Below, piece by piece: positions 7,541 through 42,010 of a stretch of DNA of 64,000 nt. Under the pieces are notes generated by a model. It searched no databases and was not told the origin of the DNA. It saw only the letters and a list, made by a program, of their open reading frames with translations. The stretch lies in the NCBI GenBank assembly GCA_018661775.1, contig JABJHO010000014.1, forward strand, positions 42,305 through 106,304, read 5' to 3'. Within the stretch, counting starts at the first letter, position 1; the number at the start of each line of letters is the position of its first letter. The DNA is from Candidatus Magasanikiibacteriota bacterium (GTDB lineage Bacteria > Patescibacteriota > Patescibacteriia > Magasanikbacterales > UBA922). Both the position numbers and the translations under genes were made by a program.

Positions 7541-8233
7541 CTATAGTGTATTATCCAGTATATGCTTAAGCTCTTGCAAATCACCACTCCAATTCTTTCC
7601 GTCAAACCACTCGAGCCCGCTAAACTGTAATTTATACGTGTCACTTGGTCTTTGTGCTGAACCTAAATATATATATTTTTTTCCTGTTTCTTTTGCATAT
7701 AGTATGGCTTTGAGCATCATGCCCATACCAATGCTTTTGTTGGGAAAATCTAATGGATAAAAAGGATAGGAATAGTGAAGTATGTCAGTATTTTCATAGC
7801 AGACTGCATACCCAACTACGTCATCACTTTTTGTATACAGAAGGAGCATGGTAAAGTTTGTTTCTTCTGCGTTTGTAAGACATGATTTTACCGCATTGGC
7901 AGAAAATGTCCCTTTGCCAAACTTTTTTTCATAAAAATCTTTTGCACATTTTCCAATAGTCCAGTGGTAATCAGTATACGGAATAGGGTGGCTGGAAAGA
8001 GTAATATCTTCTGTTTTCCGTAAAATTCTTCTGTTTTCGCTTGTTAATACAAACGTATTCAAATCTATTCGTATACTTCGTGTTTGGTCCATTGCGCCTT
8101 TTCCTCGGCGGGTAAACACAAAACCATCGCTATATTTTTGGGTAATATTGTTTGAAACAGTATGTGTAAGTGTTTCTTGTTTCCAGGAAAAATAATCATT
8201 CATAGAATTATTGTAGTGCAATCCATAGTCCAA
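7541..8233 (-). CDS. Bpt/ATE-family aminoacyl-tRNA--protein transferase-like protein (ATE_N without Cys + ATE_C GNAT-like domain)
   Basis: 230 aa. N-terminal FTRRGKG...IRIDL...S.NRRILRK resembles ATE_N. C-terminal VGYAVCY...SIGMGMMLKAILYAKETGKKYIYLGS...YKLQF..LE matches the ATE_C consensus (SavY..SLG...YlYLGY...YK..F.P.E). Confidence 0.55.
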   Translation of the reverse strand: MDYGLHYNNSMNDYFSWKQETLTHTVSNNITQKYSDGFVFTRRGKGAMDQTRSIRIDLNTFVLTSENRRILRKTEDITLSSHPIPYTDYHWTIGKCAKDFYEKKFGKGTFSANAVKSCLTNAEETNFTMLLLYTKSDDVVGYAVCYENTDILHYSYPFYPLDFPNKSIGMGMMLKAILYAKETGKKYIYLGSAQRPSDTYKLQFSGLEWFDGKNWSGDLQELKHILDNTL

Positions 8234-9356
8234 GTAATACGACCATTGCGTGGATAATCCAAAAACGCATCACTGTTTTTTCTTCACTCCAACCGCGCAT
8301 TTCAAAATGGTGATGTAGTGGTGCCATTGCAAAAATACGTCTTCCCAATATGTATCGCCCAAAAATTTGTATAATGACACTGGCAAGTTCTACATAAAAA
8401 ATAAAACCAAGCAGCGGAAGAAGTAGCATGTGATTAATGACAATGGTGTTTATGGCAAGAAGTGACCCAAGACCAAGAGAGCCAACATCACCCATTTGGA
8501 ACCGCGCAGGCTTAATATTGAAATACGTGTACGTAAGCAACGCACCGGTTGTGGTCGCATTGAGTATGGCAATTTCTCCATATCCTTCTATCCAGCTTAA
8601 TATTGTGAGAGCAGAAAATGTAATAATGAGTGCTCCTCCTGCCAATCCATCCATACCGTCTGCCATATTTACTGCATTGGCAGTTGCCACGACAAAGAAT
8701 ATAACAAAGGGAATAATAAGCCAGCTAATGTCTATTGTTCCATCAAACGGAATGGCTATGTTTTGCCAATGCTTTCCAAGTTTTGCATAAATCCACCAGG
8801 CAGCAATGCCACCCGCAATACATTCAGTGAGTAATCTTTCGTGAACATGGAGCCCTTTTCCTGGATGTGAACCCAGCCAAAGTGACGTACGTTTAAAAAT
8901 TGACCACGGAAGGGTAATAATAAGCCAGATTCTATACCATATATTTTTGTGTACCTTAATGAGTGTAAAAATCTGCTTCAATTTTCTGTTTCGTCGTTTT
9001 TTCTCATTAAAAATATTGAGCCAGTCATCTACGCCACCAAGGATTGCCGAAAGAATCATAACCCCAACAGGTACCCAGGTAAAACTTCTCTCCCAGTTAA
9101 AGAGTATGGTAATAACCGCAACAGTTATAATGACGAGCAGTCCACCCATAATTGGTACGCCAGCTTTACTTTTTCGTGCGCCCATGGCAAGTGATGCGTC
9201 ATAATCTGGGTTTCTTACAATATTATGTTTATACAAAAAAGCAATCAGGAGTGGAGCCCAAATAAAAGATGCTATTGTGGCAAGTGCGCCAAAACCTATG
9301 GCGGTCTGTAATATGTGTATTGTGTCTGTAGGTATTATCATAATACTGTTCATCAT
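8208..9356 (-). CDS. mraY: phospho-N-acetylmuramoyl-pentapeptide transferase
   Basis: 382 aa polytopic membrane protein with NAVNMADGMDGLAGG and APLHHHFE MraY signatures. Confidence 0.85.
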   Translation of the reverse strand: MMNSIMIIPTDTIHILQTAIGFGALATIASFIWAPLLIAFLYKHNIVRNPDYDASLAMGARKSKAGVPIMGGLLVIITVAVITILFNWERSFTWVPVGVMILSAILGGVDDWLNIFNEKKRRNRKLKQIFTLIKVHKNIWYRIWLIITLPWSIFKRTSLWLGSHPGKGLHVHERLLTECIAGGIAAWWIYAKLGKHWQNIAIPFDGTIDISWLIIPFVIFFVVATANAVNMADGMDGLAGGALIITFSALTILSWIEGYGEIAILNATTTGALLTYTYFNIKPARFQMGDVGSLGLGSLLAINTIVINHMLLLPLLGFIFYVELASVIIQIFGRYILGRRIFAMAPLHHHFEMRGWSEEKTVMRFWIIHAMVVLLGLWIALQ

Positions 9357-9399
9357 AGCATAGAATACATACTATTTCAAGCTATGGGCTAAATATTTT

Positions 9400-10176
9400 T
9401 TATGTTATTAATCTGCGAATTTCTAAGATTTTTGCGCTTTTTGCACGGCCAAATGTTTCATTTGCTTCACCTATTTTTTCATGCTCTTGCCAGGTCTGCT
9501 GTGATAGATCTTTTTTTGTGTCTGTAACGGTAATGTTTCCCTGTCTAATACCATGATTGTATTTTCCATCTGCAAGCCACGCAAGACTGTGTGTATAATG
9601 AATTATTTTCGGTGCACCACCTTCGTAGTCTACTTGGTGCACAATAAGTATATGGTCAAGATCATGTCGTTTTCCTGTATCAAGCATAATAATGCAATCT
9701 CCAGGTTCTATAGTGTTAAGAGAGATCGTTTGGCTGTTTTTGTTGTCTGCCAAAACACGTACATTTGTATTTTCAATGGTGCGGAATTTTCTCACAAGCC
9801 GTCTCAATAGATTGTTGGTTTTTGGAAATGACAAACGTGTGTGCAATGGTTTTGTTGTTTGTGCAATCGTTTGGGCGTTGAGAATGTAATACGCAAGCCC
9901 CGAGCAGTCAATACCAATAGCATGATCTACAAGAAATTTTTTTACCTCTGTCTGAGAAAGTGTCGTAAGGTCAATATGTTTTTTTCTTGCAATAATTTCT
10001 ATTTCTTGCACAATATCTTCTACGGAACCTTTTCCTAAGTGCACACGCAAACCTGCCCGAACCTTTGTCTTTTTATTGTTCATGTACGGGCAAGCAACTG
10101 TGTGTTTTCCAATGGGCATGTGCAGATATGCTTCAATAATATCCATTGCTGGTTTCACTATTTTTTTTGTTGTCAT
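9400..10176 (-). CDS. cytoplasmic NlpC/P60-like (papain-fold Cys/His) hydrolase candidate
   Basis: 258 aa, no signal peptide. GIDCSGLAYYIL matches the NlpC/P60 catalytic Cys motif, and a downstream DHILIVHQV region supplies a candidate catalytic His. Confidence 0.4.
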   Translation of the reverse strand: MTTKKIVKPAMDIIEAYLHMPIGKHTVACPYMNNKKTKVRAGLRVHLGKGSVEDIVQEIEIIARKKHIDLTTLSQTEVKKFLVDHAIGIDCSGLAYYILNAQTIAQTTKPLHTRLSFPKTNNLLRRLVRKFRTIENTNVRVLADNKNSQTISLNTIEPGDCIIMLDTGKRHDLDHILIVHQVDYEGGAPKIIHYTHSLAWLADGKYNHGIRQGNITVTDTKKDLSQQTWQEHEKIGEANETFGRAKSAKILEIRRLIT

Positions 10177-11435
10177 AAAGCGTTTTCTATAATGGTTACA
10201 ATCTTTTTTCCGAGTGCATTATATACACCATGTTTTGTCATAATGCTTTCTTTAGACTGAATGCGTAACAGGTCAGACCCTAGTGTGGTGGTTGTGTACG
10301 GGATAACAGAGAGCCCAGCTTGCTCAAGTGCTTTTTTTGTTTGCGTTACGTCTATGTCTTGTGCGTCTTTTGTGAGCCTGAGAACAAGTTGTGCCCCACG
10401 TGTTACAGGAACAAGTTTGTGATCTTTTGTTTCAAGGTTTGCCAGTGCTGCGACATGCGCTTCAAACGTTGTCATGAGATTTTTTACCTGTTTTGCTATG
10501 GATTGTTGCTGTAAGTGTGATTCAAAAATAACAGAAGCTGGTTGCCTTGCATTAATCTCCAAAAGATATACGTTTCCTGTTTCTTCTTCTACGATAATGT
10601 CTATCCCAAAAGCCCCGCGCCATCCATCGTGTTGCATTTTTTTTCCAACTGCATGGGCTATTTCTTTACACTTCGCCTGTTGATCATATGAGAGTATGTC
10701 TTTTGGAAGACCCCAGTCATTGCCGATGGTGGCAAAAGGTTGGTCGGTAAAAGGAGAGAGCCCAGTAATTTGGTAACTCAATGATCCTGTGTGGATCGCA
10801 TCTTTTGAGACAACGCCGTTGCAAGTAAACGTGGGGCCGTTAATATAGGCCGACACTTTTACCGGTCTTTCGGGAAATGTTTTTTGGAGTTCTTGTAGTT
10901 GTATTTCGCTGTCTATTAATACTGTTCCACTTCCGGTGTGTCCCTGGTTAAATTGCAATACAAATGGTTCATAATTCCATGCAATGTTTTTGCATACATC
11001 TATGTGGTGAGGGGGAAGATGTGTAGTCATTGTACCAAGCCACGCAACTTGTGAAATTTTCTCTTCTATGTTGCTTGCTAGGTTGGTAAGCGGGTTAAGT
11101 AGTGGGATATTATGTGTCTTGCAAATCCGCTCTATTTTTTTTGTAGGTTTGTATACCATAATACCACCAAATGCGTTTTCACCACATTCTTTGGTTTTTT
11201 TTGCAATGTACGCGAGTGATTTTGGATGCTCAAGGAGTTGCCAAGAATCCAAAAGTGTAGTAGTGTCAATGAGTACAATGTGTGACCTTTCTTGGGCATA
11301 TGATTTGGCAAACTCGGTCACATTTGAGATAATAGAAAAATCAGAGATAGACATGTCCATCCCCGATGCTCGCTCAAAAGAGCGATTTACATATATAATG
11401 TGGTGATTTTTAAGCCACGTGAGTAATTTTTCCAT
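10173..11435 (-). CDS. ATP-grasp carboxylate-amine/peptide ligase (Ddl-like or side-chain ligase candidate)
   Basis: Core ATP-grasp signature GAFGIDIIVEEETGNVYLLEINARQ with a pre-ATP-grasp N-domain. Start taken at ATG 11435 (MEKLLTW) because the longer ORF overlaps murB upstream. The 4-nt overlap with the downstream gene implies an operon. Confidence 0.6.
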   Translation of the reverse strand: MEKLLTWLKNHHIIYVNRSFERASGMDMSISDFSIISNVTEFAKSYAQERSHIVLIDTTTLLDSWQLLEHPKSLAYIAKKTKECGENAFGGIMVYKPTKKIERICKTHNIPLLNPLTNLASNIEEKISQVAWLGTMTTHLPPHHIDVCKNIAWNYEPFVLQFNQGHTGSGTVLIDSEIQLQELQKTFPERPVKVSAYINGPTFTCNGVVSKDAIHTGSLSYQITGLSPFTDQPFATIGNDWGLPKDILSYDQQAKCKEIAHAVGKKMQHDGWRGAFGIDIIVEEETGNVYLLEINARQPASVIFESHLQQQSIAKQVKNLMTTFEAHVAALANLETKDHKLVPVTRGAQLVLRLTKDAQDIDVTQTKKALEQAGLSVIPYTTTTLGSDLLRIQSKESIMTKHGVYNALGKKIVTIIENAL

Positions 11436-32818: not shown

Positions 32819-34228
32819 ATGAAAAAAGCTGATATACAAAAAATGGAATCACAATCAAGGCAGTCTTTTACGTATGCAACGCATGATATTCAAGATTATC
32901 GACAGTCTTGGCGGATATTTCGTATTATGGCTGAATTTGTCGAAGGCTATTCCTTTCTTTCGACGCTAAAAAATGAAATTACTATTTTTGGATCAGCACG
33001 TTTTTCTCCAGATGATCCGTATTATATTATTGCCAGAGAATTAGGAAAGATGTTGGGAGAAAAAGGGCATACCATTATTACAGGCGGTGGTCCTGGTATT
33101 ATGGAAGCAGCAAATCGTGGGGCGCATGACGCTGGTGCAGAGTCTGTGGGGCTAAACATACAATTACCTTTTGAGCAGATACTCAATGCACATACAACCA
33201 AATCTGCATCATTTAATTATTTTTTTACACGCAAAGTAATGTTAACTTCACCTGCGACAGCATTTGTGTGTTTTCCTGGTGGTTTTGGTACAATGGATGA
33301 ATTTTTTGAGGTGGTAGATTTGTGTGAGCTTGGCATGATGCAGTCCGTGCCAATTGTCTTAGTTGGAAGTTCATACTGGAACCCACTTTTGGAATTTCTT
33401 CGAAAGAGTTGTTGCGCTACAGGTTCTATTACAGAAGAACAAATAGATAAAATACATGTTGTTGACACGGCAGAAGAAGCATATATATTGTTACAGGATG
33501 TTGAAGATCGGCCACATGACCCAAACATGGTATTGCATCAGTTTAGCCAAGATGGCAATATAGAGTGGAAGGTATTTAGGATAATGGCAGAACTGGTAGA
33601 AGGGTTTGAGTTTTTGGTAAACATGAAAGAAGATATTACGGTACTTGGAACAAAACACATACCAAAAGATTCGCATTATTATTCTGATGCAGAAAAACTT
33701 GGTAAACAGCTTGTTGATCACGGTTTTTCTGTGGTTACCGGTGGAAAATACGGTATTGCAGAGGCAGTAAACAAAGGTGCATATGAAGCGGGTGGTGCGT
33801 CATACGGACTTGGTATGGATGTTGGTGGGCATAGGGAGCTTAACCCATATCTTACGCAGTCAATGTTATTTCGTTTTGCGTTTACAAGAAAGCTTATTGT
33901 TACGGCACCATCGAAAGGGTTTGTATTTTTCCCAGGTGGGTTTAGTACGCTTCATCAGTTATTTGAAGTGCTTACACTTATTCAAACAAAGAAAATGGCA
34001 AAACGACCTATTATATTATACGACAGAGAATTTTGGCAACCATTGCATGAGTTTATTAAAACAACTATGGTGCATGACGTTGGGACAGTGTCGGATGAAG
34101 ACGATGAGTTGTATCAAATCGTAGACAGTGTGGAGGCTATACATAAAATACTTGGCGAGGCACCCGAAGAGTCAAAACAGTTTACGATGCATTGGGATGA
34201 CGAAACTGCAGCGCACTATAAGCAGTAA
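32819..34228 (+). CDS. tandem LOG-family (TIGR00730, cytokinin riboside 5'-monophosphate phosphoribohydrolase-like) protein
   Basis: Two Rossmann LOG modules: GGGPGIMEA...PGGFGTMDEFFEV and a degenerate second GGKYGIAEA...PGGFSTLHQLFEV. Start at ATG 32819. Confidence 0.7.
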   Translation: MKKADIQKMESQSRQSFTYATHDIQDYRQSWRIFRIMAEFVEGYSFLSTLKNEITIFGSARFSPDDPYYIIARELGKMLGEKGHTIITGGGPGIMEAANRGAHDAGAESVGLNIQLPFEQILNAHTTKSASFNYFFTRKVMLTSPATAFVCFPGGFGTMDEFFEVVDLCELGMMQSVPIVLVGSSYWNPLLEFLRKSCCATGSITEEQIDKIHVVDTAEEAYILLQDVEDRPHDPNMVLHQFSQDGNIEWKVFRIMAELVEGFEFLVNMKEDITVLGTKHIPKDSHYYSDAEKLGKQLVDHGFSVVTGGKYGIAEAVNKGAYEAGGASYGLGMDVGGHRELNPYLTQSMLFRFAFTRKLIVTAPSKGFVFFPGGFSTLHQLFEVLTLIQTKKMAKRPIILYDREFWQPLHEFIKTTMVHDVGTVSDEDDELYQIVDSVEAIHKILGEAPEESKQFTMHWDDETAAHYKQ

Positions 34229-34280
34229 TGAGTATTATTTTGACAGTTACATGATATTTTGTTATTGTGTGACTACTTAT

Positions 34281-34370
34281 GGAGAGATGGCAGAGTGGTC
34301 GAATGCGCAGCCTTGGAAAGGCTGTGTACGAGCAATCGTACCGCGGGTTCGAATCCCGCTCTCTCCGCCA
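34281..34370 (+). tRNA. tRNA-Ser (anticodon GGA), class II with long variable arm, CCA encoded
   Basis: Acceptor GGAGAGA/TCTCTCC, anticodon loop TTGGAAA, T-arm GCGGGTTCGAATCCCGC, ends GCCA. Confidence 0.8.
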
Positions 34371-34378
34371 ATATAAAA

Positions 34379-34466
34379 GGAGAGGTGCCGGAGTGGTTGA
34401 ACGGGGCGCTCTCGAAAAGCGTTGTCCGGTTTTCTCGGACCGCGGGTTCGAATCCCGCCCTCTCCG
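34379..34466 (+). tRNA. tRNA-Ser (anticodon CGA), class II with long variable arm, no encoded CCA
   Basis: Acceptor GGAGAGG/CCTCTCC, anticodon loop CTCGAAA, identical T-arm to upstream tRNA. Confidence 0.75.
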
Positions 34467-34627
34467 CGAATATACAAGAGGTTATGCGGTTTCGCTTCGT
34501 TTCACCCAAATTTTCACACACAGTGGTAAGTCCTTTTTAATTTTTTTTGGGAAATAAAAAACCGCCTCAACCTTTTTTGGTATGTTGGCGGTAAGTAGTT
34601 GGTTTGCTTAGTTCTAGCCTAGCAAAC

Positions 34628-34825
34628 TTATATGGCGGTAATAGTAATGTCGGCTGACCCTCCAAAATTCTTGGCGGTTTCTGCCGCTACACCTGAAAGA
34701 ACGATGGCAGTGTACCAGAAATCTGGGTAGCCACCGCAGGCCTTTTTGACCTTGTTGCGGTTGGTGTTCCACTCGATTTCGGACTTACTGCTTTTCATCA
34801 GCGCCACAACTTCACGTTGGGTCAC
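34628..34825 (-). CDS. hypothetical small protein (65 aa) in GC-rich islet
   Basis: Overlaps upstream lipoprotein gene by 4 nt (operon). GC-rich composition. No motif recognised. Confidence 0.35.
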   Translation of the reverse strand: MTQREVVALMKSSKSEIEWNTNRNKVKKACGGYPDFWYTAIVLSGVAAETAKNFGGSADITITAI

Positions 34826-35385
34826 GGTATGCTCCTTTTGACCGCTAAGAAGTGAATGTCTTTTCTGTCAAACGCATCGCTTTCCCAGGTCTCACTCAGG
34901 CTTAGTACCTGCTTACCTTCAGACTTTTGGAGAATCGGGACATTTATGTGTCCGCAATGAGCCTTCCAGTCAGATCCAAGGGCTACCACGTAACTCTCTT
35001 CTAGGTTTGGATACATAACACTTAGTGCCAGTAACTCTTCGAGAGTTGCGGGTCTGAAACCTTGGTCTTCGAGCTGCGCTTTTGGTGGTTTAGAAAAAGG
35101 GGTCATTCTCAGACGAACCATTTCGACCTTAACCTGTTCCGCGTTACAGTCGTTTTCACGGACACCGCGCACCTCATAGGCGTTGTCATCGCTCAAGATT
35201 CCACTGTAGGCAAAACTTACCCAGTCATATTTTCCTGCTTCAATCATGGTCTTGTGTTTGCAGTTGACCATCACTGAGTAATTTGGGTTTGGTTGCTGGT
35301 TATAATTAGAGGTTGGTTCCTCTGGTGCCGAACAACAAGACAGTGTCAAAATGACACAAATAAAGATAAAAGCTTTCTTTTCCAT
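34822..35385 (-). CDS. hypothetical lipoprotein (187 aa) in GC-rich islet
   Basis: Signal peptide with lipobox LTLSC. GC content visibly higher than genome background. Confidence 0.5.
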   Translation of the reverse strand: MEKKAFIFICVILTLSCCSAPEEPTSNYNQQPNPNYSVMVNCKHKTMIEAGKYDWVSFAYSGILSDDNAYEVRGVRENDCNAEQVKVEMVRLRMTPFSKPPKAQLEDQGFRPATLEELLALSVMYPNLEESYVVALGSDWKAHCGHINVPILQKSEGKQVLSLSETWESDAFDRKDIHFLAVKRSIP

Positions 35386-35775
35386 GGTTGGTATTTCTCC
35401 TTTGTACCAATGGGTTATCAGTCATAGCAGTTTTAGCCAGGACTCTTTAAATCGCTAGTACTAAACGAGCTAAAAGTCATGGCTAAAAGTATTTAAAAGC
35501 GGTTTTAAAGGAACAGTGCAACTCAGCACTCTCTTAGAGAAGAGGTTGGTGGTTGACGGTATTTGAATACTAGCATATAATTATGGTTCTGTCAAGTTTA
35601 AGCACAAGATATAGTAAAGAAAATGCTAAAATTCCTATTTAGGTATGAGTTCCAACAATAATACGACAAACAATAGGCGGTTCGTGATTTGTTCACAAAC
35701 TTACGGTTCATTGGCGTTCTAGTCCCTATTATTACATTATCTTTCGTCGTAGTACTTATAATTAATACAGAATAA

Positions 35776-36489
35776 ATGAAAATCATATTTTTAGCATTTA
35801 TCTTTTGCTTTTTGGTTGAGAAAATTATTCCTGGTTGGGAATTGCCCAAAGTGAAGACCTGGCCATTAAGAGTTTTGGTAATCAATGGAATTCAATTGAT
35901 TGTTGTTGTAATTGGCGGCTTAACTTGGGAAAAATGGTTATCATCCTATTCAATATTTCATTTTGATGTTTTGGAAAACAATTGGATTGGGGCAGGTGTT
36001 GCATATGTTATTGCCACATTCATTTTTTACTGGTGGCATCGCTGGAGACATGAATTTGATGCTTTGTGGTTAGGGTTTCACCAGATTCATCATAGTCCGC
36101 AACGATTGGAGGTTATAACAAGTTTTTATAAGCATCCAGGAGAAATGATAGCTAATTCCATATTAGGGAGTGTTATTGTGTATGTAATTTTAGGGCTTAG
36201 TATAGAAGCAGGAGTAATGTATACGGTGTTTACCGCGCTTGGTGAGTTTTTTTACCACACAAATATTAAGACACCAAGATGGGTAGGGTTTTTCTTTCAG
36301 CGACCAGAAATGCATAGAATTCATCATCAATATAATCGACATAAGAATAATTATGGAGACATTACTTGGTGGGATATGCTTTTTGGAACCTATGAAAATC
36401 CAAAGGAATGGGCACATACCTGTGGATTTGATGATGCAAAAGAGCAAAAATTAATACCTATGTTACAATACAAAGACGTACATAAATGA
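35776..36489 (+). CDS. fatty acid hydroxylase / sterol desaturase superfamily membrane protein
   Basis: Three histidine boxes HRWRHE, HQIHHS, HRIHHQ, 4 TM. Confidence 0.75.
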   Translation: MKIIFLAFIFCFLVEKIIPGWELPKVKTWPLRVLVINGIQLIVVVIGGLTWEKWLSSYSIFHFDVLENNWIGAGVAYVIATFIFYWWHRWRHEFDALWLGFHQIHHSPQRLEVITSFYKHPGEMIANSILGSVIVYVILGLSIEAGVMYTVFTALGEFFYHTNIKTPRWVGFFFQRPEMHRIHHQYNRHKNNYGDITWWDMLFGTYENPKEWAHTCGFDDAKEQKLIPMLQYKDVHK

Positions 36490-36575
36490 GACTAAATTTT
36501 TAGAAATATATCACCTAACATTGATTTTTTCTAGGAATTTTAGTATACTCTTGGTACTTAAATAAGAAAATCTAT

Positions 36576-37052
36576 ATGAATTACAACCTCATACTTACAA
36601 CCATAATATGTATTACGTTGTTTGCCGGTTGTGGAAATAGTGAAAAAGACAAAAATAACATGCATGTAGAAAAACAAACAGACACCAAAAGCATTGAAGT
36701 GTCTGGAGGGTTTTCGTATGTACAGCATACTTCTGGGAGTGTTGGACCATATACACAGACAACGCTTCGAAAAGTGTGTTTTGAGCCAGCACAATTAGAG
36801 ACTATAAATAATGGTAATGTGTTTTGTTTTACCAATACACAAGAAGCCTTGCGTGTTTTAGGTGTGACAGATTTAGATGACTCTTGTCAGAGATATTGGG
36901 GGATTGCAACAATACAAATAAAAAACCTTACTGATACGGTTGGTTCCATATCTAAAGGAGATGACTGTGTAAAGCAGGGGAGTTGTTCCACAAACCAGGC
37001 AGAACTTGTTGGTGTAACAGAATATTTTCAAACTGCTACATGTAAAAAATAA
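36576..37052 (+). CDS. Cys-rich lipoprotein (possible periplasmic partner of FTR1 permease)
   Basis: Lipobox LFAGC, 8 Cys. Directly upstream of the FTR1 gene. Confidence 0.45.
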   Translation: MNYNLILTTIICITLFAGCGNSEKDKNNMHVEKQTDTKSIEVSGGFSYVQHTSGSVGPYTQTTLRKVCFEPAQLETINNGNVFCFTNTQEALRVLGVTDLDDSCQRYWGIATIQIKNLTDTVGSISKGDDCVKQGSCSTNQAELVGVTEYFQTATCKK

Positions 37053-37114
37053 GAGATTTAGTCCATTATCTTTTTCGGTGAAAACAACATTAATTTACGT
37101 AGGTTATTTTATTT

Positions 37115-37945
37115 ATGGAGCAAACAATACAAGCAATGATTATTTCTTTTCGAGAAGGGTTGGAAGCTTTTTTAATTATTACCATCCTTTTAGAATTTCT
37201 AAATAAAACAAATAATACTCGCCTTAAGCCGGTGGTCTGGCATGGAGCAATTACAGGCATTGCTGTTTCTTTTGTTTTTGGTATTGGGTTATTTTGGATT
37301 GCGTCATATATCGGTGCGGTAGACGCAACGGCTAAATTGTGGGAAAGTGTTATGAGTCTTGCGGCGGTTGGCCTTATTGGTACATTTATTGTTGGTATAA
37401 TTAAGCATGGTCGGCATATTGCCACACATATTAAAAATAAGGCAGCGTTGAATATTTCTAAAAAAGGTATGTTTCTTCTTGCATTATTTTTGGTAGCCAG
37501 AGAAGGGGTCGAAATAGCTATTTTTTCTTTTGCAGGAAAATACACGCTTTTCCCCATTCTTGTTGGGGTTGCTTTATCTCTGTTTGTGGTAATACTGATT
37601 CATTTTGCAATTATTAATATTAGATTACAAACTATTTTTATAATAACGTTGGTGTATCTTATACTCCAATCTGGTTTTTTGTTTGGATACAGTATACACG
37701 AAGGACTTTCTGCTTTAAAAAGTTTACAACTACTGGCAGAGAATAATATATTTTTAACAAAAGCATTTAATCTGTCAGATACCATATTCTCACATAAAGA
37801 TGGTATTATTGGGATGCCATTATATATATTGTTTGGATGGTATTCCAAGCCCGAATGGATACAATTGTTTGCGCAGTATGGATTTACTGCCGCATTTTTT
37901 GCATTTTGGTATAAACAATCGATACCTAAAAAATCACGCTCTTAG
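37115..37945 (+). CDS. FTR1/EfeU-family high-affinity iron permease
   Basis: Two REGLE motifs (REGLEAF, REGVEIA) in TM1 and TM4, 7 TM. Confidence 0.75.
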   Translation: MEQTIQAMIISFREGLEAFLIITILLEFLNKTNNTRLKPVVWHGAITGIAVSFVFGIGLFWIASYIGAVDATAKLWESVMSLAAVGLIGTFIVGIIKHGRHIATHIKNKAALNISKKGMFLLALFLVAREGVEIAIFSFAGKYTLFPILVGVALSLFVVILIHFAIINIRLQTIFIITLVYLILQSGFLFGYSIHEGLSALKSLQLLAENNIFLTKAFNLSDTIFSHKDGIIGMPLYILFGWYSKPEWIQLFAQYGFTAAFFAFWYKQSIPKKSRS

Positions 37946-38026
37946 TAGTGTTAAAGATATATATCCTAAAAACAAAAAAAGACCCTTATTTATACTCGCT
38001 GGGTCTTGGGTGCGAGGGTGAGAGGC

Positions 38027-38521
38027 TTAGGTGTGTGGGTTGTACTTGCCCAAAGGCGCGCGCATTTCTGCTGCTCTATAGAGCGTCACACTGACTTCAA
38101 GCATCTCTTGAAGCGAATCGACCACATAGAGGTTGGAGAGTCGAAGCTTCTTGAGATGCTCTTTGACTAGTGCTCGTGCGCGCAAGCTCTCCTTTCTGGC
38201 AACCGCGTCTTCGAGGTTATCATCAAGTTCTTGTTCGATCATGATGACAAAATCTCGACGATCTTCTAGCCTAATAGCGTTTAGCACGCTAAAGCCAGTT
38301 TCAGCGAGAGAGCCTGTGCCATAGGTTTCTCCTGTTATCGGGAAGAGAACGACTTGGTCGTTCGCTAGGTGCTCCGCTTCGATCACGGCGTCTTCAGGTT
38401 TCCAGTCCTCAACCTGTGGGTTAAAGAACTGAATACCTTCTTGGTTGTAGTGACTCATGAATGGAGTGCGCCATTGAGAGTTTCCACAGGTTCCAAAAAG
38501 ACCAATATATAACGTACCCAT
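38027..38521 (-). CDS. hypothetical protein, possibly nucleoside 2-deoxyribosyltransferase-like Rossmann fold, GC-rich
   Basis: 164 aa. YIGLFG N-terminus reminiscent of NDT/LOG-like folds. GC-rich relative to surroundings. Confidence 0.3.
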   Translation of the reverse strand: MGTLYIGLFGTCGNSQWRTPFMSHYNQEGIQFFNPQVEDWKPEDAVIEAEHLANDQVVLFPITGETYGTGSLAETGFSVLNAIRLEDRRDFVIMIEQELDDNLEDAVARKESLRARALVKEHLKKLRLSNLYVVDSLQEMLEVSVTLYRAAEMRAPLGKYNPHT

Positions 38522-38864
38522 AATTACCTCCTTATTGGTAGTGGGTGGTTACGTTTGAGTGTGCACTTTAACACAGTTGTCATTATTTGTCAAGTGTTTT
38601 TCGGGATTTGGGCTAAAATTAGAGGAAAACGTATTGTAAACACTCTTTGGTATTTTTTTTGTTTCTTGGTGCGCTTTTAGGTTGTTTATCTGTGGTTTTG
38701 GTTATAAACTTGTATGTTGGTCTAAAAAGTGCACACACGCTCACTCCTTCTTCGGGTCCACATCCACCACAACAAAATAAGTAATTTTTTCTTTTTGTAT
38801 AATTTGTATAGTATTGATATTTTTGATATACTCAGTATAGCTTTTATTTAATATATATACACAT

Positions 38865-41458: not shown

Positions 41459-41722
41459 TTATTCGCCAGCGGCGGCGACTCCAAAGAGTGTCACTGAGGC
41501 CATTGCTCCTGCGAATAGTATGGGTAGTAGTGTGATAGTTGGTGCACCTGCCGCCCCAGCTAGTGTTACCAAGACGGTCGCTATGCCTGTGGCGCCGCCT
41601 GTAGTGGTTGCCAGCGAAAGTGCTTTTTGGCGCCTATGGTGAAGCGGCCCAAAGGCTGTGCGTAGAAGAGATCCAAGGAGAATGGGAGCAAATAAAGCGC
41701 CCAAGATAATAAGGAATTGCAT
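41459..41722 (-). CDS. small Gly/Ala-rich membrane protein (87 aa)
   Basis: 3 predicted TM. GC-rich (~50%). Paired with upstream paralogous-looking small membrane protein. Confidence 0.35.
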   Translation of the reverse strand: MQFLIILGALFAPILLGSLLRTAFGPLHHRRQKALSLATTTGGATGIATVLVTLAGAAGAPTITLLPILFAGAMASVTLFGVAAAGE

Positions 41723-41725
41723 GTG

Positions 41726-42010
41726 TCACACCCTCTTCCTTTCTAGAAACTTCAGTGTTAAGGCTCCGCCGGCAAACATGCCTAGTCCGGCAGCAAACAG
41801 ATAGGGTATTTCTGGGCCTTGGTACTCTGGGAGTGCCCCAGCTGCCTCTAATGCTCCGCAAAAGATGAGCATGGCACCACCAAGAGTTATCCATGCGCTC
41901 ATAAGAGCACCAAGAATCTTGGAAGTTCCAGTTATGGTAGCTGCTACCATCATTGAAAAAAGTGCTGACACCAAAAAGATGCCAACTAAACTGAATATCG
42001 TTGTTACCAT
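41726..42010 (-). CDS. small Gly/Ala-rich membrane protein (94 aa)
   Basis: 3 predicted TM. 3-nt spacing to downstream gene. GC-rich. Confidence 0.35.
   Translation of the reverse strand: MVTTIFSLVGIFLVSALFSMMVAATITGTSKILGALMSAWITLGGAMLIFCGALEAAGALPEYQGPEIPYLFAAGLGMFAGGALTLKFLERKRV

Follow-up and report, generated by a model that had tools for sequence, protein, structure and literature searches.

In this study, a two-gene islet located downstream of tandem serine tRNA genes was analysed in a 64,000-nt stretch of DNA (hereafter the window; contig JABJHO010000014.1, positions 42,305–106,304) of a Candidatus Magasanikiibacteriota bacterium (assembly GCA_018661775.1). The islet encodes a predicted 187-aa lipoprotein and a 65-aa protein, and its base composition is foreign to the surrounding genome. 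The best supported reading, to which we assign a probability of about 0.6, is that of an old acquired patch without an integrase, in which the lipoprotein would be a fixed, surface-binding relative of the target proteins of diversity-generating retroelements (DGRs) and the second gene a member of a phage family. According to this reading, a small piece of DNA would have been horizontally acquired by this lineage and fixed for some time at a tRNA-Ser hot spot. The product of the first gene would be exported and lipid-anchored, and its C-terminal ~140 residues, a predicted C-type-lectin-like ligand-binding domain, would bind a specific ligand at the cell surface. In an episymbiotic cell of the candidate phyla radiation (CPR), this ligand could plausibly be a surface structure of the partner cell or of the environment. 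The second gene, translationally coupled to the first, would supply a small protein of cytoplasmic appearance, and the two proteins may be linked in function.

The tRNA genes, i.e. tRNA-Ser(GGA) (34281–34370, plus strand; Rfam RF00005, 61.6 bits) and tRNA-Ser(CGA) (34379–34467, plus strand), the latter starting 8 nt past the former, were both recovered by ARAGORN and Rfam. Their last 44 nt share 91% identity and the T-arm GCGGGTTCGAATCCCGC is the same in both, which confirms the tandem with identical T-arms described in a first-pass annotation of this DNA. The 65-aa open reading frame (ORF; 34628–34825, minus strand), with a GTG start codon, is separated from tRNA-Ser(CGA) by 160 nt, and its upstream partner is the ORF of the predicted lipoprotein (34822–35385, minus strand). 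The two ORFs overlap by 4 nt (GTGA, the GTG start lying over the TGA stop), and the overlapping operon proposed in that annotation is thus present. The islet is bordered by the 160-nt spacer on the tRNA side and, on the other side, by a 390-nt divergent control region (35386–35775) between the lipoprotein gene (minus strand) and a fatty-acid hydroxylase gene (plus strand). Both spacers are indeed unusually long, being the ninth and the second longest of the 63 spacers of the window, whose median length is 46 nt.

A first line of evidence is base composition. The GC content in 300-nt windows equals 0.47–0.49 over 34.6–35.2 kb, compared with 0.39 for the entire window, so that the GC jump previously reported for the islet stands, the 37–38% given for its background being slightly low. 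The GC content at third codon positions (GC3) is 0.576 for the 65-aa gene (z +3.1) and 0.473 for the lipoprotein gene (z +1.7), against a background of 68 ORFs (mean 0.341, sd 0.077). The long ORFs of the window have GC3 values of 0.20–0.43 nearly throughout, the exceptions being this pair and a few short GC-rich ORFs. In sliding-window comparisons of tri- and tetranucleotide composition, a 760-nt window placed on the islet ranked 8th–11th of 633 by distance (z about +3), and the composition is therefore not uniform. After GC normalisation, the dinucleotide bias of the islet is ordinary (rank 95 of 633), so the anomaly is mainly a shift in GC. This shift is limited to coding sequence, as the 160-nt and 390-nt spacers have native-like GC contents (0.38 and 0.35, respectively), and a regional bias can therefore be dismissed. 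The gene pair is compositionally foreign. A chimeric lipoprotein gene, composed of a native signal peptide (GC3 0.35) and a foreign remainder, was also considered and set aside, 20 codons being too few to decide.

The lipoprotein begins with a predicted export signal, MEKKAFIFICVILTLSC, in which a basic N-region and a hydrophobic core (maximum Kyte-Doolittle value of 2.87) are followed by the lipobox LTLSC with Cys17. This signal peptide with its lipobox (35335–35385, minus strand) fits, by inspection, the PROSITE PS51257-type pattern, and a low-complexity linker comes next. The lipidation enzyme Lgt is encoded within the window (PF01790; 39337–40143, corresponding to 4683–5489 of L001). L001 is a contig of the metagenome-assembled genome GCA_018658985.1 (Candidatus Magasanikbacteria bacterium), 99.9% identical to the window over 20.2 kb, from which gene and Pfam calls within ±10 kb were taken. 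Searches with the lipoprotein in Pfam, PHROGs, NCBIfam and PADLOC gave nothing meaningful. The remainder of the protein (residues ~47–187; 34825–35247, minus strand) is predicted to form a C-type-lectin-like domain. The prediction comes from a structure model built on 80 sequences, used in place of a poor one built on 10 sequences (pLDDT 56), and Foldseek comparisons with PDB and BFVD returned nothing significant. The predicted fold agrees with published data, according to which the variable regions (VRs) of DGR targets take on C-type-lectin folds and a clade of DGRs is confined to Patescibacteria (PMC8144416).

Homologues of this domain are numerous. A first search revealed five close variants and six distant homologues (34–39% identity), and a profile search extended the family to 6,773 representatives, 4,240 of them at E ≤ 1e-10; no Pfam domain covers the region. 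Most family members are about 200 aa long, with the domain at the C-terminus. P0006, one of the six distant homologues, is encoded next to an Avd gene and a reverse transcriptase (RT) gene. The last 142 nt of the P0006 gene recur 540 nt downstream with 86% identity, and 17 of the 20 mismatches fall at adenines of the downstream copy. These features make P0006 the variable protein of a canonical DGR. The scan was extended to metagenomic loci of the family with a 10-sequence alignment, which yielded 33 informative loci. Avd and RT genes and/or a repeat resembling a template repeat (TR) were found in 20 of them. At 13 loci, at least 78% of the TR/VR mismatches were located at TR adenines, and at six loci this was true of all mismatches (26/26 twice, 22/22, 21/21, 20/20 and 14/14). 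The C-terminal domain of the lipoprotein is thus homologous to VR-bearing DGR target proteins, and its last ~53 residues (34825–34983, minus strand) are the counterpart of the variable region. Several loci (L019, 8001–10741, and L124–L166) were compact DGRs with the order ~200-aa target gene, TR, Avd (on the opposite strand) and RT. In some members of the target family the domain occurs in tandem, as two or three copies, and in P0166 there is a fusion with a protein kinase domain.

The copy in the window bears no sign of such diversification. Within the 64-kb window there is no repeat of at least 35 nt involving 34822–35385, whereas a similar search finds TR/VR pairs in L019 and in the 13 metagenomic loci. 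Likewise, tblastn with the RT and Avd of L019 gave no match in the 64-kb window and 40–61% identical copies in 16 loci of the family. No RVT_1 or Avd gene was called within ±10 kb, and the window holds no second member of the lipoprotein family. Among the variants P0001–P0005, which are 81–95% identical overall, the C-terminal ~50 residues differ at only 0–3 positions, which makes the VR-equivalent end the best-conserved part of the lipoprotein among natural variants, and eight contigs from different samples encode an identical lipoprotein. The absence of TR, RT and Avd from the window, together with the conserved VR-equivalent end, indicates that the lipoprotein is a fixed relative of DGR targets. 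A signal-like N-terminus is present in about 13% of the sampled family members and missing from about 87%, so the exported, lipid-anchored form is a minority.

One may ask whether the C-terminal region is diversified in trans by an active DGR located elsewhere in the genome, as its domain is homologous to confirmed VR-bearing proteins and the inspected window is just 64 kb of the genome. The conservation of the ~50 VR-equivalent residues and the identical lipoproteins of eight contigs speak against this, as does the lack of a TR-like repeat, RT and Avd in the window. Targets of DGRs require a downstream target-recognition hairpin, and here the lipoprotein gene shares its 3' end with the 65-aa gene, leaving no space for one. 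We regard this explanation as extremely unlikely.

A fixed relative is therefore the preferred description of the lipoprotein, and the systems nearest to it are DGR target proteins, especially the cell-encoded ones of Patescibacteria/CPR (DGR clade 2; Roux et al. 2021, PMC8144416). Structural examples of DGR targets are TvpA of Treponema denticola (PDB 2y3c) and Mtd of a Bordetella phage. The window lipoprotein differs from them in that TR, RT and Avd are missing from the window and its VR-equivalent region is conserved instead of hypervariable. It also differs from most members of its own family in having a lipoprotein signal peptide at the N-terminus, and its gene has a phage-type small gene, in place of Avd, as its coupled partner. 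Also near are the C-type-lectin-like, FGE-sulfatase-like and DUF1566 (Lcl C-terminal) domains of bacterial surface proteins, such as the fibre tip Bd2740 of Bdellovibrio (8oks), the C-type-lectin-like domains of invasin and intimin, and Lcl of Legionella (8q4e).

The 65-aa protein is of a different provenance. It lacks a signal peptide and matches nothing in Pfam, PHROGs, NCBIfam, PADLOC or PDB, and identical copies of it occur on 24 marine metagenome contigs. Searches revealed first 35 and then at least 724 homologous clusters, none of them named or bearing a Pfam domain, with the well-conserved motif EVVALMKSSKSE.EWN.N.DKVK.A.GGYP.FWY.AIVLSG. Members of this family are present on 15 IMG/VR viral contigs and also on plasmid-like contigs. 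Some relatives stand in strings of small phage genes together with Lar, DUF1064, ParB-DUF5131, HNH, Gp157 and RecT, one adjoins a TrwC relaxase gene, and another lies on a 139-kb phage-like contig. A tblastn search of the INPHARED phages and PLSDB plasmids with the 65-aa protein found no match. Profile searches of the PDB with both families gave only chance-level similarities (OspC3, E = 0.037; Crb2, E = 0.074), which were rejected.

The nearest relatives of the 65-aa protein (68–75% identity) are encoded by solitary genes whose neighbours differ from contig to contig, on contigs of 35–52% GC. In low-GC contigs the genes of the family are 0.06–0.145 richer in GC than the contig, and in phage or high-GC contigs they equal it. 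These nearest relatives stand in L035–L040 (e.g. L035, 9001–9201), each between long spacers and in surroundings that otherwise have nothing in common; their GC exceeds that of the contig in the low-GC contigs L037–L040 and equals it in L035 and L036. Members of the family seem to insert by themselves, and the GC pattern is consistent with repeated transfer from mobile elements whose GC content is moderate. Most likely, the 65-aa protein is the product of an accessory gene of phage origin that is co-expressed with the lipoprotein. In this respect it resembles phage morons and small ORFs of phage early regions: the family occurs as a stand-alone ORF among early and recombination genes of phages, and also, in cellular genomes, as an isolated insert that differs in composition from its host. 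Unlike morons, the gene studied here has no surrounding prophage and is translationally coupled to a lipoprotein gene of cellular type, and its family, for which neither PHROG nor Pfam has a model, is without matches in cultured phages and plasmids.

The phage connection raises the question of the function of the pair. Phage and plasmid exclusion proteins are often small lipoproteins. The pair could accordingly be the remnant of a phage or plasmid moron, in which the lipoprotein, helped by the small protein, blocks phage adsorption, DNA entry or pilus-mediated uptake. The occurrence of the small-gene family in phage early regions and near a relaxase gene is in line with this, as is a very faint resemblance between the signal-peptide region and EexN lipoproteins (E = 0.083); the latter is below any meaningful threshold and confined to the signal peptide. 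The scan found no member of the lipoprotein family in IMG/VR viral contigs, and none was found beside the small gene elsewhere, including phage and plasmid loci, so only this lineage couples the two genes. The neighbourhood holds no other remnants of a prophage. The origin would be that of the preferred reading; we consider such a role unlikely, yet exclusion is the main alternative to surface ligand binding by the lipoprotein, which is the likeliest mechanism, at roughly even odds.

The distribution of the islet was examined by scanning species-representative genomes with the protein of the gene directly upstream of the tRNAs (32819–34228, plus strand), which is composed of two fused LOG/'lysine decarboxylase'-type domains (PF03641 twice). 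This revealed 12 other Magasanikbacteria-like genomes, with GatA proteins 61–65% identical to that of the window. GatA adjoins LOG in all but one of the 12 species, and tRNA-Ser(GGA) is found near LOG in 10 of them, the conserved order being GatA-LOG-(Lgt-like)-tRNA-Ser(GGA). In the flanks of this locus, no homologues of the lipoprotein, the 65-aa protein, the fatty-acid hydroxylase or FTR1 were found in any of the 12 species. Judging from this gene order, the tRNA locus appears to be ancestral and everything beyond it lineage-specific.

Closer relatives carry the pair. In the lineage represented by L009–L014, whose LOG protein is 99.8% identical to that of the window, the two genes are kept at 94.6% and 84.6% amino-acid identity. 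A third marine lineage, L176, retains the order hydroxylase-spacer-lipoprotein-small gene-tRNA-Ser(CGA). Nucleotide divergence of the sister lineages from the window grows toward the tRNA: identity to the window is 97% in the hydroxylase gene, 93–98% in the 390-nt spacer, 92–95% in the lipoprotein gene, 88–94% in the small gene and 88–89% in its 3' flank, which only L009 and L176 match over the full length. The ratio of nonsynonymous to synonymous substitution rates (dN/dS) of the 65-aa gene is 0.17, compared with 0.05 for the neighbouring hydroxylase gene and 0.12 for GatA. The pair, common to at least three sister lineages, is functional, under purifying selection and older than the split of these lineages; given its presence there and the dN/dS value, its acquisition was not recent. 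As a separate observation, the LOG protein, nearly invariant between the sister lineages, neighbours a GatA that is merely 93.7% identical, which suggests that this tract either recombined recently or is very strongly constrained.

Purifying selection in at least three sister lineages would also be expected if both genes were native and had never been transferred, their GC3 having been raised by codon selection (e.g. for high expression) or by mutation bias near the GC-rich tRNAs. The ordinary GC-normalised dinucleotide bias of the islet can be read in the same way, and the small-gene family stays fairly GC-high in several low-GC contigs. This explanation has to contend with the narrow GC3 range of nearly all long ORFs of the window, with the native GC of the bordering spacers, which rules out a regional bias, and with the absence of both genes from the flanks of the 12 related species. 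Moreover, in phages the GC3 of the small gene tracks that of the contig (0.22–0.77), hence the gene is not intrinsically GC-rich. A purely native origin is accordingly judged improbable.

The neighbourhood of the tRNA genes is a hot spot of insertions and deletions among the sister lineages, the surroundings of tRNA-Ser(CGA) having three different arrangements (those of the window, L009 and L176). In the window, a variable junction of 34 nt (34495–34528) lies beyond tRNA-Ser(CGA), with blastn blocks stopping at 34494 and restarting at 34529. In L009–L014 this segment is replaced by a 2.95-kb insert, placed exactly between the flank of tRNA-Ser(CGA) and the terminator of the pair and encoding a DKNYY-repeat protein (656 aa) and a DUF4440 protein (Pfam). 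In L176 (1816–3230), past tRNA-Ser(CGA), a gene for a 154-aa protein of unknown function and a GrpB gene stand instead of tRNA-Ser(GGA) and LOG; rearrangements have therefore taken place on both sides of tRNA-Ser(CGA). As most other species have only tRNA-Ser(GGA) after LOG, tRNA-Ser(CGA) may not be ancestral at this site. A second indel is the exchange of window positions 36521–37076 for about 4 kb with five genes in L009.

Some features of these indels are worth recording. Within the L009 insert (7590–10541), the DKNYY gene is located between 31-nt inverted repeats (7807–7837 and 9849–9879, 94% complementary) and is also flanked by a 34-nt direct repeat (7671–7704 and 9909–9942, 85% identical); these repeats may be traces of its mode of insertion. 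No att-like repeat bounding the insert was found. The segment of the window exchanged in the second indel contains a window-lineage-specific 158-aa gene (36576–37052, plus strand) for a predicted lipoprotein with the lipobox LFAGC and without a family match, and the L009 genes in its place encode a 115-aa unknown protein, a sigma-70 region 4 protein, EamA, HIT and a pyrophosphatase.

In the first-pass annotation the islet was suggested to be a cassette, possibly from a high-GC partner organism, with the 3' end of a tRNA as the integration site. The position of the GC-rich pair, just 160 nt beyond tRNA-Ser(CGA) on its 3' side, and the different 2.95-kb insert at the same junction in a sister lineage would suit a classical island of this kind, delivered as a single cassette of a high-GC partner or host by a site-specific integrase acting on the tRNA-Ser 3' end. 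A search for the tRNA 3' end (25 nt, up to 3 mismatches) matched only the two tRNA genes themselves in the entire window, including the 35.4–35.8 kb region where a copy had been anticipated, and no direct repeats flank the pair in 34200–38700. No integrase or recombinase was found among the called genes and Pfam matches within ±10 kb. Integration at the tRNA 3' end thus gains no support. Nor could a donor be identified by homology searches with the two proteins, and no high-GC partner emerges, since the relatives nearest to the small gene are found in contigs of 35–52% GC. Its relatives as a whole occupy contigs of 32–66% GC, low-GC ones included. Those of the lipoprotein (at most 39% identity) belong to DGR loci of the Avd-RT type known in the literature from CPR bacteria, and occupy contigs of 34–61% GC, mostly 34–56%. 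Since the GC3 values of the two genes differ, their relatives are unrelated and their adjacency is confined to this lineage, the pair does not look like one cassette from one donor. We therefore hold a tRNA-targeted island to be very improbable. What stands of the earlier proposal is horizontal acquisition as such, to which the foreign composition, the absence from 12 species and the viral and plasmid-like settings of the small-gene family point, and the siting of the islet at a variable place linked to a tRNA; the notion of one cassette is abandoned. The pair is best described as separately derived genes that are old and stably inherited.

Like tRNA-linked islands and islets, the pair lies downstream of a tRNA gene, has an atypical composition, is found in one lineage and borders on strain-variable content. 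Such islands typically come with an integrase and a duplicated tRNA 3' end, both missing here. The islet also differs from them in comprising just ~0.8 kb of coding DNA and in its age and stable inheritance.

Several points weigh against an acquired patch with a DGR-related lipoprotein. No integrase, att repeat or other scar proves or dates the insertion. No empty site was found among the 12 species, in which synteny past the tRNA is wholly lost, so that the absence of the pair could reflect this general loss and not a discrete insertion. The GC3 excess of the lipoprotein gene amounts to merely +1.7 sd, and the search for DGR components extended over the 64 kb of the window. Furthermore, about a dozen family loci with enough flanking sequence are also without a nearby DGR, hence 'DGR-derived' denotes an association of the family and not a demonstrated ancestry.

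The non-coding parts of the islet are conserved as well. Folding of 34530–34630 revealed a hairpin followed by a U-run (34551–34592, minus strand; ACCGCC...GGCGGU, then UUUUUUAUUU), located 36 nt past the stop codon of the 65-aa gene and kept in sequence in L009 and L176. It is a plausible terminator facing the tRNA, predicted from its fold; a simple terminator scan did not list it. In the 390-nt spacer, which is 93–98% identical over four lineages with its first 100 nt invariant, a promoter scan detected overlapping divergent promoter-like sites (35553–35581, plus strand, and 35595–35567, minus strand). The conservation of this spacer is comparable to that of the hydroxylase gene and exceeds that of the lipoprotein gene. 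The lipoprotein mRNA would thus have a leader of ~175 nt, with a 5-bp hairpin (35515–35530) and a long hairpin (35431–35488). The former stays paired across G-C, A-U and G-U variants, in minus-strand RNA only, and the latter is almost invariant. With three distinct sequences compared, these observations merely hint at a regulatory leader RNA, and Rfam searches of the spacers, at the gathering threshold and at E up to 1, returned tRNAs only.

These elements enter a more far-reaching interpretation, in which the C-terminal domain is a frozen DGR-type domain that lost its retroelement, gained a signal peptide and became coupled to the phage-derived 65-aa protein, the two forming a two-component surface recognition or exclusion module controlled by the structured ~175-nt leader. 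We put it forward as a speculation with a small chance of being correct. If true, the pair would be a previously undescribed module in marine episymbiotic Magasanikbacteria.

Two further GC-rich patches are found in the window. The second GC-rich outlier is a gene for a 164-aa protein (38027–38521, minus strand; GC 0.485, GC3 0.50, z +2.1), whose product weakly matches the nucleoside 2-deoxyribosyltransferase-like PF15891 (E = 1.4e-6, just below the cut-off). Its dN/dS against the sister lineage is 0.28, the highest of the genes compared, and it may be another acquired gene of the same variable region. The third patch (GC 0.47–0.54) consists of two adjacent small genes (41459–41722 and 41726–42010, both on the minus strand) without a Pfam match, whose products, of 87 and 94 aa, are hydrophobic and rich in Gly and Ala; their GC excess is partly owed to amino-acid composition.

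As a case of gene acquisition next to a tRNA, the islet is ordinary. Its products, in turn, draw attention to two large families without annotation in Pfam or elsewhere, namely a lectin-like domain with ~6,800 representatives and a phage-type 65-aa protein with at least 724 clusters. Tiny and uncultured, CPR bacteria are thought to spend their lives attached to other cells, and the proteins with which their surface binds are the foremost candidates for recognising a partner. The islet indicates that a lectin-like domain that in CPR is usually diversified by a retroelement would also exist in a fixed, lipid-anchored and horizontally passed form, and it provides a concrete candidate adhesin for this marine lineage.

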